IMG/VR virus record: IMGVR_UViG_2684623139_000002
Length of the DNA stretch: 20,000 nt
Strand: one strand, 5' to 3'
Source of the DNA: an uncultured virus (IMG/VR IMGVR_UViG_2684623139_000002)
Lineage: Duplodnaviria > Heunggongvirae > Uroviricota > Caudoviricetes
Shown: in pieces, positions 15,097-20,000 of the stretch
Numbering within the stretch: position 1 is the stretch's first letter
Layout: every line of letters begins with the position of its first letter
Translations under genes and position numbers: made by a program
The notes under the pieces: model-generated
The model's input: the letters and a program-made list of their open reading frames with translations, nothing else
Told to the model about the DNA's origin: nothing
Database searches by the model: none

Positions 15097-15387
15097 TTCC
15101 TGAGCACTGAAAGATTGAGCTTCAGCGCTCGCAAGCCTGATCGTGTAGGCCTTTGATTTGTAAGAGGCATGGCGACATGTGTCTAAGCCAACGCCTATAG
15201 AGGTGTCAATTTCAACCCCAGGTTACATTGACCTCACAACACGCCCTGAAACATGTCGGAACCGATGAATGACCCTGCCGAGCAGGAAAGCGATGCCGGG
15301 GAGAGTGAACGCCCCGCTGGAGCGGCCCCCTGAATCCCCGGACACAGTCACCCACTTAAACTAACGGGTAGGCATACGACTGTGTTT

Positions 15388-15777
15388 ATGACTAGCAGCA
15401 AACAAGAAGTGATGGAAGTGTTGACGGGGCCGGAGCGCCGCCGGCGGTGGTCGGTGGAAGAGAAGCTGGCGATGGTCAGGGAGAGCTTCGAGCCGGGCAA
15501 GACGGTCTCGATGGTGGCGCGCCAGCACGGTGTGAACCCGAATCAGGTGTTCCAGTGGCGCAAGCTGTACCAGGACGGCAGCCTGTCGGCGGTGAGCGCG
15601 GGCGAGGACGTGGTGCCGGCCTCGGAGCTTGCTGAGGCGCTCAAGCAAGTCCGTGAACTGCAGCGCATGCTCGGCAAGAAGACGATGGAGAACGAGATTC
15701 TGCGCGAAGCCGTGGAGTACGGTCGGGCAAAAAAGTGGATTGCGCGCTCGCCATCGTTGCCGGGGGACGACCAGTGA
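15388..15777 (+). CDS. IS2-group transposase OrfA
   Basis: [17 protein letters not shown]...[17 protein letters not shown] plus coiled coil; A6G -1 frameshift site at 15729-15735. Confidence 0.92.
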
Positions 15778-16622
15778 AGCAGGTTTGCGAGGTCCTCGGC
15801 GTAGCGCGCTCGAACGTGGCGACCAAGCTCGCTCGACCTGCTGATTGGCGTGATGGGCGCACGGCCCGACAAACCGACGACGCTGGCCTGGTGGGCGAAA
15901 TCCGGCGCGTCGTCGCCGACTTGCCAAGCTATGGTTATCGGCGCGTTTGGGGCAGATTGCGGCGCGAACGTGAGCGTCGATGCGAGGCGCCGGTCAATGC
16001 CAAGCGGGTCTACCGAGTCATGCGCACGCATGGCCTGTTGCTGGAGCGCAGGCCGACGCCACCGCGCCCACAGCGTCGGCATGACGGCAAGGTCGCTGTC
16101 GCCAAGAGCAACCAGCGCTGGTGCTCGGACGGGTTCGAGTTCCGCTGCGACGACGGCGAGCCGCTGCGCGTGACGTTCGCGCTGGACTGCTGCGACCGTG
16201 AAGCGATGAGCTGGGTGGCGACGACTGGCGGCTACAGCGGCGACGTCGTGCGCGACGTGATGCTGGCGGCCGTCGAGCAGCGCTTCGGCAATGTTCTAAA
16301 AGCGCCGGAGCAAATCGAATGGCTGACGGACAACGGCTCAGGCTACATTGCCGAGAAGACCCGCGAGTTCGCCACGGACATTGGCCTGAAGCCGTTGACG
16401 ACGCCGGTGTGCAGCCCGCAGAGTAACGGCATGGCAGAGAGCTTCGTGAGGACGATGAAGCGTGATTACGTCGCCTTCATGCCCAAGCCTGATGCGGCGA
16501 CCGCTGCGCGCAACCTTGCTATCGCGTTCGAGCATTACAACGAGCAGCATCCCCATAGCGCGCTGAAATACCGCTCGCCACGCGAGTTCAGGCGCAGGAC
16601 GGAATCATCAGCTCAAGTGTGA
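15735..16622 (+). CDS. IS2-group transposase OrfB (DDE integrase core)
   Basis: [28 protein letters not shown]; in -1 frame relative to OrfA. Confidence 0.92.
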
Positions 16623-16790
16623 GGCGGTGTCCGGAGATGCGGGGGCAAATCCACCCGCGCAGGCTGACCGACGTCACAACGTCCAACTTCGCAACCTCTA
16701 TCTTGATCCGAACAACTACCGCTTTATCGATGCGGACACTTACACCAAAGTGGGCGATGAGGCTGCATTCGTGCTGACCTGCCCCCGGTT

Positions 16791-17660
16791 TTAGTGCGAA
16801 ACGCAGGTGGAGTCCGAGGTTAAAAACTCTTTCTGCTTGCTCCCCTGGGCGAACTGCACCGGGGTCAGGTAGCCGAGCGAGCTGTGAGGCCGCTCGGTGT
16901 TGTACTCGATACGCCATTCCTCAATCAGTTGCCTGGCGTGGCGCATTGAGACGAACCAGTGCTCGTTCAGGCATTCATCACGGAACCGCCCGTTGAAGCT
17001 CTCGATGTAGGCGTTCTCCACGGGCTTGCCGGGCCGGATGAACGATAGCGTGACACCTGCTTCGTAGGCCCATGCGTCCAGCACCTTACCAGCGAACTCC
17101 GGGCCGTTGTCCACCGTGATGGAAGCGGGCAAGCCTCGCATCTCCTTCAGCCGTTCAAGCACTTGCTTAACCCGAAGGCCCGGCAACGAGGTGTCAACCT
17201 CGATGACCAGGCACTCCCGCGTGTAATCGTCGACCACATTCAGGCATCGAAACCGCCGACCATACGCCAACCCGTCGGAGACGAAGTCCATCGACCAGCT
17301 CTGGTTCGACCCTGTTGGCACCGGCAGCGGCTTGCGCTCGACAGCAGCAATGCGTTTGCGTCGCCGCTTGCGCACGCTCAGTCCCGCCTTGCTGTACAGC
17401 CGCCAGATGCGTTTGTGGTTTGCCAGCCAGCCCTCCCGTTGCAACAGCACGTGAATCCGGCGATAGCCGTAGCGACGCTTCTGCGCGGCGATGGCCACCA
17501 TCCGACCAGTCAGCACTTCGTCGTCAATTCGGCGGCGCGATTCGTAGTGGAACAGCGAGCGCGAAATCCCCACCAGCCCGCAGGCCCGGGTGACACCCAT
17601 GGCGCGTTCGGTCATCAATGTTCGGACCGCTTCGCGCTTGGCCTGCGGGCTTGCTACTTT
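16791..17660 (-). CDS. IS407-group transposase OrfB (DDE), expressed by -1 frameshift
   Basis: YGYRRI, WSMDFVSD, ITVDNGPEF, ENAYIESFNGRFRDECLN. 5' end set at the frameshift region. Confidence 0.9.
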   Translation of the reverse strand, partial: KVASPQAKREAVRTLMTERAMGVTRACGLVGISRSLFHYESRRRIDDEVLTGRMVAIAAQKRRYGYRRIHVLLQREGWLANHKRIWRLYSKAGLSVRKRRRKRIAAVERKPLPVPTGSNQSWSMDFVSDGLAYGRRFRCLNVVDDYTRECLVIEVDTSLPGLRVKQVLERLKEMRGLPASITVDNGPEFAGKVLDAWAYEAGVTLSFIRPGKPVENAYIESFNGRFRDECLNEHWFVSMRHARQLIEEWRIEYNTERPHSSLGYLTPVQFAQGSKQKEFLTSDSTCVSH

Positions 17661-17914
17661 CGAGACAGCAGGTCCTTCAGCGCGGCGTTGTCGAGCATCG
17701 ACTCGGCCAGCAGGCGCTTGAGCTTGCTGTTCTCCTGCTCCAGCTCCTTCAGGCGCTGCGCTTCGGAGACCGTCATCCCGCCGAACTTCGCCTTCCAGTT
17801 GTAGTAGGTCGCCTCCGAGATGCCGTGCTTGCGGCACAGCTCTGCCGGCTTCAGGCCTGCCTCGCCTTCCTTCAGCACGCCAATAATCTGTTCTTCGGTG
17901 AATCGCTTCTTCAT
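17654..17914 (-). CDS. IS407-group transposase OrfA
   Basis: MKKRFTEEQIIGVLKEGEAG...ELCRKHGISEATYYNWKAKFGG; ends in CGA AAG TAG. Confidence 0.93.
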   Translation of the reverse strand: MKKRFTEEQIIGVLKEGEAGLKPAELCRKHGISEATYYNWKAKFGGMTVSEAQRLKELEQENSKLKRLLAESMLDNAALKDLLSRK

Positions 17915-17979
17915 GACCGCTCCTCTTCGGAACGGACTCTACATCGTCAACGTACCAATCGCGGGGAGCAGGTCAGTGC

Positions 17980-20000
17980 GAGATGACGTGCAGCGTCGAA
18001 CGATGCAGCTGGTCTTGGGCAAGAACGCAGAGAACGTCAAGGAACTCGTCGAGAGCTTTCGCAAAAGCGGTTTCTTGCCGGTCGATCAGATACAGGTACG
18101 TCAACTCGGTGGTGGCAAGTACCTTGTGGTCGAAGGAAACCGACGTGTAGCTGCTCTCAAGTATCTGCAGTCACGCTATGAAAGCGAAGGCATCCACCTC
18201 GGCAAGCTGGACCCGAACGTGTTCTCGCGTGTTCCAGTGGTGTACTACCAAGATGCTGACGAAGCCCATCACTTGGTGCTGATGGGCCTGAAGCACATCA
18301 GCGGCAATAAGAAATGGCCGGCGATCAATCAAGCCGAACTGGTACGCGACTTGACCGAAATTCACGGTATGTCCGCAGAAGACATCTGCCAGTCAATCAG
18401 CATCAGCCGGAAAGAGTACAACCTCACCTTATCAACGCTGCGCTTAATCGACCTGTACAAGAAAAGCGACTATGGAGACCAGTTCCAGTCCGAGATGTAC
18501 TCCATCTTCCGGGAGATCACGCGGAATGCCGCCCTGAAGTCTTGGCTGGTATGGAATGACAAGGACGGCACGAGTGGCAAGCCACTCAACCTTGAACGTC
18601 TATTCTCTTGGCTGTCCCGTGACAATATGGAGGAAGAGGATACCGAGGAAGACGCCTCCCGTATCGATGGCCTACAACTTGAGCCCGTGATCACGCGCGC
18701 AACGCATGTGCGCGAACTGGCCCGCCTTGTTGGTGACGAAACAGCACTGTCTAGCCTCGACGCTACGCGCAGCCTCACACAGGCGAGCCTGTCCAGCGAA
18801 CTACTTGGACGCAACAGGGTGGCTAACTCGATCTCGATTATCAACCAGGAACTCACCTCGGTATTCTCCATGGTTAGGCACCTCGGCGACCGAGATCGAC
18901 TCGACCTAAAACGACTTGCCAACCAAATTTCCGGCGTCCTAGACGCTGGCGGCGGAGTGGTTGAACCGACGCGAGTACATACAGCCCACCTACTCTCTAA
19001 CAATCAACGACACCTGCAGCGAATGCATGTGGCGCGTTACCGCAAGCTGATCGGCGTCACGTTCGATCAGCTTGCGCGCATTAACCTCTTCGCTGGAATC
19101 AACAACTCAGGGAAAACCTCGATCCTCGAAGCTGTCGAGTTAGTCGCCAACCTCAACCGCTTCAAGACTCTGTCCGATATGATTTGCCGTCGCGGCAAGG
19201 TGCGCTACGAAGACGCTCAAGCGGACTGGGTGTTCGGGCAAATCCCGGAATGGGAGATCGAAGCTACTGTAGGTGACGTCAAGCTCGAAATATCGGCAGC
19301 CAAAGAAACAGATGGCCCGCAAGAGCAAGCCTTCTATGTAGGAACAATCGATACCGTGGCGCAATTTGGCGACGACGACGTTGGTTCGCAGACACATTTC
19401 TTCGACCGTTACCCCTACAGCACCGAAGGCAACACGCGGCCTTTACTGCCGGCACAGTTCACCTCACCATATTCACCGCATGCTCAGGATGAGTTGATCG
19501 CTGCCTACGAGATAGCACTGAGGTGCGGACTCAAAGACAGCTTAATCAATTTTATCCGTTCAAATGTCGACCCCATGTTCGCTGACGTCGAGTTGGTGAA
19601 AGATCGATTCTTGGTAAAGAAGGATCAGGTTTACATGGATCTCGATGACTTTGGTGACGGCATCCAGCGCATCTTCGGCATCTGCATTCTATTCGCTTCT
19701 GTCAAAGACGGCGTTCTGCTCATGGACGAGGGTGAAAGCGGCATCCATAGCTCACTATTCGAGAAATTCGCTGAGTTCATCCACGAGCTAAGTGTGCGTT
19801 TCAATGTCCAAGTCTTCTTGACCACACATAGCAAAGAGTGTGTTGACGCCTTTGTTAAGGCATCCAGCATCCCGTCAACTGATGTGGCAGGCTATGCCAT
19901 CGTTGCCCGCGAAGGGAATCCGCGGGCCGTACGCATAGACGGTCAACGGTTAAACGAACTGGTGACCTCGATCGACTTCGACCTTCGGAGTCCAGCATGA
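17980..20000 (+). CDS. Undisrupted 3' portion of the ParB-like/ABC ATPase fusion (first in-frame ATG at 18003, 665 aa)
   Basis: No stops or frameshifts. EGNRR at 18132, Walker A at 19095-19121. The ORF-track start at 17820 lies inside the IS. Confidence 0.8.

Follow-up and report, generated by a model that had tools for sequence, protein, structure and literature searches.

A probable PDC-M38A gene, first of a candidate two-gene antiphage system, interrupted by two insertion sequences

A gene in three pieces and the insertion sequences that split it

The 20,000-nucleotide stretch of DNA analyzed here (the window, by which we mean the whole stretch; IMG/VR record IMGVR_UViG_2684623139_000002, from an uncultured member of the Caudoviricetes) ends in a gene that is split by two insertion sequences (ISs) and that matches PDC-M38A, a ParB-headed ATP-binding cassette (ABC) ATPase cataloged in PADLOC as a defense candidate. 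The pieces span 15253–20000 on the plus strand, from ATG 15253 to a TGA stop codon at 19998–20000 that, read directly, is the final triplet of the window; the end reads GCA TGA, and the whole PDC-M38A coding sequence lies inside the window. The first piece (15253–15317) holds codons 1–21 (MSEPMNDPAEQESDAGESERP) and two further bases, as aligned to the N terminus of the intact homolog P0002. The second (16659–16774) encodes residues 22–60, among them the first strand of the ParB fold, LDPNNYRF (16702–16725), and the third (17980–20000), placed by alignment and by its PADLOC match, encodes residues 61–733 and the stop codon. The insertion points thus lie 65 and 180 bases into the gene, at codon 22 and at codons 60–61.

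Both insertions belong to the IS3 family. The first, IS#1, is 1336 bp long (15318–16653, plus strand), has terminal inverted repeats (outer ends TGGA...TCCA), and is flanked by a 5-bp target-site duplication, CCCGC (15313–15317 and 16654–16658); its two open reading frames (ORFs), orfA (15382–15777) and orfB (15735–16622), overlap at an A6G slippery frameshift site (15729–15735). The second, IS#2, is 1201 bp long (16775–17975, minus strand; orfA 17914–17654, orfB 17837–16791), and an inverted-repeat search gave its ends as TGACCTGCCCCC and GGGGAGCAGGTCA, flanked by a 4-bp duplication, GTGC (16771–16774 and 17976–17979). Both duplications were read directly. All four IS ORFs match Pfam (HTH_Tnp_1 or rve/rve_3/HTH_21), and each element combines an orfA helix-turn-helix (HTH), an orfB DDE integrase, inverted repeats and a short target duplication. 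Full-length copies with 100% identity and the same ends were found in Ralstonia solanacearum megaplasmids for IS#1 (eight records at 99% or more) and in one R. solanacearum megaplasmid record for IS#2. Because these full-length copies end at exactly the same positions, the IS boundaries are independently confirmed.

A preliminary description made from the letters of this DNA had proposed that removing both ISs and one copy of each duplication restores a single frame of 733 residues. We translated the pieces separately and unjoined (15253–15315, 16654–16773 and 17976–19997) and then aligned them to intact homologs. They tile end to end, with no gaps, stops or frameshifts, on P0002 (733 aa) and on P0001 (728 aa; an AAA family ATPase of Ralstonia pseudosolanacearum by its NCBI name, with 36 member sequences), bearing out the proposed frame at 21 + 39 + 673 = 733 residues. 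The window protein is 83.2% identical to P0002 and 91.1% identical to P0001. In a family alignment of 118 sequences, all 42 invariant residues and 70 of the 72 nearly invariant ones are retained by the window copy; because every invariant residue is kept, the gene was apparently sound until the insertions, which by this measure look recent. The native protein cannot be made from this copy. PDC-M38 calls for intact, expressible genes, and these the window copy, with its two IS3-family insertions, does not provide. We also observed an ATG at 17820, within IS#2 on the strand opposite the transposase, that opens a 726-codon frame in phase with PDC-M38A residues 61–733 (17820–20000, plus strand). 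The hybrid ORF is without the first 60 residues, among them the opening strand of the ParB fold; were it transcribed from the IS end, this predicted product could still supply the ATPase part.

The family assignment comes from PADLOC-DB v2, in which model PDLC04607 (PDC-M38A, 715 positions) matches the long third piece with E = 5.9e-212 over protein residues 3–671 and profile positions 43–714; the first 42 profile positions, unmatched by the long piece, are supplied in the alignment by the first two pieces. The remaining PDC-M38A models have ~360–380 positions and match the ATPase half alone, and because they are ATPase only, the ParB-headed form is one sub-family. Fusion of a ParB head to an ABC ATPase is therefore an architecture already cataloged in PADLOC, as a candidate, and the gene is not the undescribed one that the preliminary description had taken it to be, since PDLC04607 models exactly this fusion; the name it carries is nonetheless that of a cataloged, untested candidate, a named system only in a weak sense. 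The PDC set of Payne et al. (bioRxiv 10.1101/2024.01.29.577857) comprises 145 untested ‘guilt-by-embedding’ candidates, defined by their location within BREX, DISARM and type I restriction–modification (R-M) systems. We consider it probable that the window gene is an insertionally inactivated copy of PDC-M38A, which stands first in a candidate antiphage system of two genes.

Uninterrupted homologs, whose existence the preliminary description had made a touchstone, are plentiful. Among 8000 scored candidates, 728 had E ≤ 0.001, and the 120 homologs listed are 642–748 aa long, each covering at least 94% of the query. Pfam found AAA_21 (4.5e-17) and AAA_15 (4.8e-16) on the long piece, and six weak NCBIfam matches all fell far under their cut-offs. 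In contigs representing one genome per species, there were at least 601 pattern matches, at least 530 of which encode a PDC-M38A relative, and the spread of PDC-M38 is patchy over many phyla. Scans of metagenome and viral contigs for the window protein yielded no close relatives with genomic context; a metagenome scan with the clade profile returned relatives at 31–47% full-length identity and short fragments, and nothing closer. No plasmid record matched window positions 18000–20000, and none of 50,697 phage records held a full-length PDC-M38A (0 of 10 matches cover 80% or more).

Heads without a fused ATPase were seen as well. P0226, P0230, P0211 and similar proteins (~346–361 residues, e.g., from Schaedlerella and Paenibacillus) cover 87–95% of the head at 33–38% identity and look from their sequences like free-standing heads, which may point to a split, three-gene form; many other short head matches carry the label partial. 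Another head-only homolog is gp98 of Escherichia phage Wphi (L168 96–1301; the same protein occurs in Peduovirus P2), with 24% identity over residues 30–347. It lies in the variable region of P2-like phages, overlapping the next gene, gp96, for which there was no PADLOC match; gp98 itself matches the PDC-M38A head (9e-25, positions 58–342) and PD-Lambda-5_A (3e-24) in PADLOC.

The ParB-type head and the ABC ATPase

The intact protein is shown by structure matches, profile alignments and motifs to consist of a ParB/KorB/Noc N-domain, a ParB-type HTH, a helical linker and an OLD-type ABC ATPase, confirming the ParB-type head with HTH and the complete ABC ATPase of the preliminary description. 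An AlphaFold model of P0002, built with 118 homologs, has a mean predicted local distance difference test (pLDDT) score of 89.0 and a predicted template-modeling (pTM) score of 0.56, with the head at residues ~26–382, a disordered stretch at 384–393 and the ABC ATPase at 406–725. An acidic linker had also been described. The acidic stretch does exist (residues ~276–292), as a low-confidence loop (pLDDT ~54) within the head half; the actual linker between head and ATPase is the helical region at ~300–382 followed by the disordered 384–393. A separate model of the head (residues 1–372 of the relative at locus L001, 74 sequences) scored pLDDT 88.5 and pTM 0.78.

Foldseek matched the head to KorB (8qa9) with E = 7e-6 and TMt 0.54–0.62 over 256–302 columns, and also to ParB of Myxococcus and Caulobacter, Noc and Spo0J, giving 24 matches at E ≤ 0.001. 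The KorB, ParB, Noc and Spo0J matches span both the ParB N-fold and the HTH (E 7e-6 to 5e-4, TMt up to 0.62, 221–302 columns). The top VIA-align Z scores were 7.9 (pNOB8 ParB-N), 7.4 (PadC), 7.2 (Spo0J) and 6.6 (sulfiredoxin), all below 8, a range that the tool calls middling; VIA-align alone is no proof of the fold, and the assignment rests on it together with Foldseek and the profile alignment. In that alignment, EGNRRVA lies against the GERRxRA box of ParB, and the segment MSAEDICQSISISRKE (18369–18416), also placed by the structure match, lies against the HTH of the ParB-type DNA-binding domain. Across 118 homologs, LDPNN..R is conserved at 90% or more and EGNRR is invariant. The preliminary description had singled out the former segment as one that full-length homologs should hold.

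EGNRR (18132–18146) is the equivalent of the ParB GERR arginine box, with asparagine replacing glutamate; the glutamate is absent, and asparagine invariant at that position, throughout the 118 PDC-M38A homologs. In ParB, the glutamate of the GERR box is required for CTP hydrolysis, and a Protein Data Bank (PDB) title among the head matches, ‘ParB E93A mutant ... bound to CDP and monothiophosphate’, fits this role. The change suggests that nucleotide may be bound without turnover. A similar static clamp has been proposed for the inactive ParB of ‘effector-ParAB’ immune systems in a recent preprint (10.64898/2026.10.19.760177). From the Foldseek matches, the GERR-type motif and the aligned HTH, the head is a canonical ParB/KorB/Noc-type module, unlike the DUF262-type domains of GmrSD, SspE and Menshen NsnA.

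This bears on the link that the preliminary description had drawn to modification-sensing ParB/Srx domains, which is not supported. A head that senses modified DNA (phosphorothioate, or glucosylated or hydroxymethylated bases) in the manner of those DUF262-type domains would have a precedent in Menshen, where ParB-DUF262 sensors are coupled to ABC ATPases (PMC12065111), and the PADLOC model of Menshen NsnB does match the PDC-M38A ATPase weakly (4.8e-11). We nevertheless regard modification sensing as very improbable: Pfam found no DUF262 match to the window protein, the conserved motif is of the GERR and not the DUF262 kind, and the best structural matches are to canonical CTP-dependent ParB, KorB and Noc, HTH included.

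The ATPase half has all the motifs of an OLD-type ABC ATPase, namely Walker A (GINNSGKT, 19095–19118), a signature-like FGDGxQR, Walker B with the D-loop (LLMDEGESG, 19716–19742) and an H-loop, the Walker motifs being placed by family alignment and translation. Its Foldseek matches include the retron-IA and Septu PtuA ATPases, the SMC and Rad50 heads and the Thermus OLD nuclease (E 3e-10 to 5e-8), and the family profile run against PDB sequences found OLD (3.4e-7), PtuA (2.4e-6) and AriA (4.5e-3). Together with the PADLOC matches given below, these uphold the resemblance to AriA-, OLD- and AbiL-type sensors that had been noted.

The partner gene, defense neighborhoods and proposed mechanism

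The best 80 of the at least 530 relatives were retained (L001–L080), of which 74 contain an EGNRR-bearing ORF longer than 550 residues; all partner and neighborhood counts use these loci, with L081–L160 left out. A conserved ORF lies directly downstream on the same strand in 58 of the 74 (median 289 residues, median offset −3, an ATGA overlap), and a short-form partner is present in 3 further loci. In 8 of the remaining 13, the partner had been obscured by spurious antisense ORFs or frame breaks and came to light in a profile search, giving 69 of 74 in all. The commonest arrangement is the offset of −3 (34 of 61 partner ORFs), the same 4-base overlap as the ATGA with which the window ends and at which PDC-M38B would begin: ATG 19997–19999, read directly, overlaps the stop codon and is the expected PDC-M38B start, the body of the gene lying outside the window. 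The preliminary description overlooked this second gene; its protein is only the first of a two-gene system whose Toprim-like partner lies past the window end. Because IS insertions have polar effects, the partner of the window copy is probably silent too.

Among the five loci without a partner, L007, L016 and L075 have fewer than 800 bases downstream, L060 has HEC-01A instead, and L015 is unexplained. In L060 (Spirochaetia), the HEC-01A ATPase gene (10148–11386) overlaps the PDC-M38A stop codon between the type III Res and Mod genes, and may represent a partner swap or a nested second module. In three metagenome-assembled genomes (L044, L025 and L047), the partner gene is divided between two open frames, through decay or assembly error.

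The partner matches PADLOC PDC-M38B (E ~1e-75). Pfam found weak DUF3226 matches (1e-5 to 3e-8) and, on one short form only, RloB (1.9e-3). At the sequence level, 46 aligned partners have the conserved glutamate and DxD-like pattern of Toprim domains: E9-G10 (FCEG) and D128 are invariant, D128 being the first aspartate of a consensus DAD motif whose second aspartate is consensus only and falls outside both the invariant and the ≥90% lists. The partner profile found nothing below E = 0.1 among PDB sequences. In relatives, PDC-M38A is translationally coupled to this DUF3226 Toprim-like protein.

The pair is commonly set among defense genes. Neighbors include PglZ, BrxL, BrxC, PglW, HmaC, type I HsdR, HEC-01A and HEC-01B. 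PglX forms two neighbor clusters (8 and 3 loci), and in the 8-locus cluster its stop codon overlaps the PDC-M38A start, while type III Res and Mod flank the pair in 8 loci each. The scan took one representative from each of 30 neighbor clusters present in at least two loci and left out singleton neighbors, so that its counts are lower bounds. A defense neighbor was found in at least 28 of 74 loci, and in 25 of 54 among loci with at least 4 kb on both sides; the former count has no background control and is thus not a measured enrichment. Such embedding in BREX, Hma and R-M operons is consistent with the definition of the PDC set by Payne et al., and these neighbors, like the PADLOC match, favor the defense-candidate reading of the preliminary description.

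Besides the missing background for that count, several points tell against an antiphage role or against the ParB assignment beneath it. The Pfam ParB_N match to the window fragment is sub-threshold (2.4e-4; 21.5 bits against a cut-off of 26.3), as the VIA-align scores of the head are middling. No published test of PDC-M38 was found in the literature, a search that did not cover supplementary tables or Krishnan et al. 2020; the terms ‘PDC-M38’ and ‘DUF3226’ were absent from the literature searched, and the main text of three papers testing other PDCs does not include PDC-M38. PDC-M63 and PDC-S04 failed when assayed (PMC12409345), as did 4 of 8 candidates in a cold-seep preprint. The mechanism considered below is, moreover, drawn wholly by analogy with PARIS, AbiL/RloAB, HEC-01 and Menshen.

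Each of these systems shares part of the PDC-M38 plan. PDC-M38 itself is the same family, its relatives having PDC-M38B as partner, and differs from the window copy in that the latter is split by two ISs with its partner beyond the window. PARIS is likewise a two-gene pair of an ABC ATPase (AriA) and a Toprim nuclease (AriB), often found near or on mobile elements and embedded in BREX loci. AriA, however, is without a ParB head, its models match only ~80 C-terminal residues of the ATPase (539–624, E 4e-18), and the partner here is DUF3226 and not DUF4435, with no AriB match at E ≤ 0.01. AbiL (AbiLi/AbiLii) and RloAB also couple an AAA_21-type ATPase to a small Toprim-like protein of the RloB/DUF3226 class, and among named PADLOC matches AbiLi ranks next after PDC-M38A (7.9e-29), but that match is partial (residues 508–635), there is no ParB head, and the RloB match of the partner is the weak one seen on a single short form. 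HEC-01 joins an ABC ATPase to a Toprim protein and is embedded in the same way; the match of HEC-01A to the ATPase is at 6.7e-12, and HEC-01 pairs adjoin PDC-M38 in several loci. It is a separate family, with a DUF4276 partner and no ParB head, and its defense activity has been shown in Payne et al. (10.1101/2024.01.29.577857) and in the cold-seep preprint.

Menshen has a ParB-type DNA sensor, an OLD-ABC ATPase transducer and a nuclease effector, sometimes a RloB/DUF4276 Toprim, by the roles proposed for it in PMC12065111. Its NsnA (ParB-DUF262 plus ParBDB), NsnB and NsnC are separate genes, whereas PDC-M38 joins sensor and ATPase in a single polypeptide, and its layout comprises two genes in 69 of 74 loci; the PDC-M38 head is of the ParB/KorB and not the DUF262 kind, and there is no inPIN domain. 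By analogy, the ParB-headed PDC-M38A looks like the sensor and transducer of the Menshen scheme in one chain. The head is also shared with PD-Lambda-5 protein A, whose model matches residues 5–108 of the window fragment (6.6e-11), but neither PD-Lambda-5_A nor Wphi gp98 has a fused ABC ATPase, and both have other partners.

On the model of these systems, the most likely working is that the A protein would hold its Toprim nuclease inactive until the ParB head sensed invading DNA or a DNA-mimicking antirestriction protein; the ABC part, by binding or hydrolyzing ATP, would then bring about a conformational change that released or activated the nuclease, which would cut nucleic acid and abort the infection. 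The AriA ATPase of PARIS keeps the AriB Toprim nuclease sequestered until AriA meets the DNA mimic Ocr, and then releases it (PMC13064643 and PMC12839542). That precedent raises the alternative that the head is a decoy for Ocr-like antirestriction proteins and not a sensor of DNA, so that a mimic disabling BREX or R-M would bind the ParB–HTH region and trigger the nuclease. The head, being a DNA-binding module, presents the kind of surface to which a DNA mimic would bind; the system lies within BREX and type I and III R-M operons; and OLD-ABC plus Toprim modules in BREX loci are interpreted in a BREX survey as measures countering antirestriction (PMC12839542). Yet AriA senses Ocr with no ParB head, its PADLOC model matching the C-terminal ATPase part only, and we think a decoy role unlikely.

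Returning to sensing of DNA by the head, PDC-M38A resembles the ParB, KorB and Noc clamps in its N-terminal fold, HTH and aligned arginine box, and departs from them in the asparagine of EGNRR and in the box-III region. The C-terminal dimerization domain of the clamps is replaced by the linker and ABC ATPase, and no ParA or parS was seen. A possible, though doubtful, elaboration is that the head is a true nucleotide-gated ParB clamp, that asparagine in place of the hydrolytic glutamate locks it on invading DNA or a DNA mimic and keeps it from cycling, and that the fused ATPase reads the locked state and frees the Toprim nuclease. If true, this would be the first link of a ParB CTP switch to ATPase–Toprim abortive immunity and would mean that three-part logic like that of Menshen fits within a single sensor-transducer chain; selection against a system costly beside a resident prophage would then account for both IS insertions within the first 180 bases.

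The same head has a bearing on whether the pair serves immunity at all. An addiction or stabilization module of mobile DNA, or a partition accessory, with the nuclease partner as an island-maintaining toxin, would suit the ParB/KorB fold, the resemblance of the ATPase to SMC and Rad50 heads, the patchy spread over many phyla and a window copy that adjoins a prophage, and PARIS itself behaves as a toxin–antitoxin pair (PMC13064643). It sits poorly with pairs nested in BREX and R-M operons with overlapping stop and start codons, with a ParB chain that has an ATPase for its dimerization domain and neither a ParA partner nor a parS-like array in view, and with the 50,697 phage records, none of which has a full-length copy. 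Such a role is, in our estimate, quite unlikely, and we keep to the candidate antiphage system as the probable reading.

The window locus itself, as a dead copy of a cataloged candidate, carries little weight; it does illustrate ISs disabling a defense gene in a plant pathogen relevant to phage biocontrol. The PDC-M38 family, at 530 or more loci and nested in BREX, Hma and R-M operons, is widespread and a worthwhile experimental target. Its ParB-headed form, having a recognizable sensor with an informative active-site change, offers a clean route to how an ABC ATPase–Toprim module senses infection.

Prophage surroundings of the window

Window positions 1–15777 match, at full identity, the final 15.8 kb of G001, the nearest provirus record (46.7 kb). 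That record breaks off partway through IS#1, so its right edge appears to come from boundary calling and not from a true end of the prophage. Phage early genes occupy 4892–14279 on the minus strand, among them two ParB_N-methyltransferases, a primase-helicase, a Sak4/AAA_24 protein and an excisionase-like HTH protein, and the window partly resembles Ralstonia phage YO164_3 (84.8% over 1636–11002). The host appears to be Ralstonia solanacearum. A search for attachment (att) repeats by blastn-short of G001 1–30902 against window 14000–20000 gave only chance-level matches of 12–18 bases, the first 7 kb of G001 holds no integrase domain and the window no tRNA gene, so that none of these places the prophage end. 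A position of PDC-M38A at the prophage edge, as first described, is plausible; it could equally be cargo inside the prophage.

The two methyltransferase genes (4892–6163 and 6160–7749, minus strand) are tandem and overlapping, each fusing a ParB-like N-domain to a DNA methyltransferase (PHROG 498; PADLOC MTase_II PDLC03229, 3e-205 and 4e-86), and are a second, unrelated use of the ParB fold within the window. No drug-resistance gene was found among the ORFs scanned, and a promoter and terminator scan of 14200–15400 gave no more hits than shuffled sequence. A low-GC island at 3000–4800 (0.45–0.48, against 0.6–0.7 around it) holds a 415-codon ORF (3526–4773, plus strand) with no match in Pfam, PHROGs or PADLOC, which may be prophage cargo. 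Approximately 160 bases 5′ of the PDC-M38A start, at 15066–15096, lies an inverted repeat with perfect 14-base arms around a 3-base loop (CCCCGAACACCTTG aat CAAGGTGTTCGGGG), which has a 31-base match, 90% identical, on the opposite strand in the same stretch of G001.

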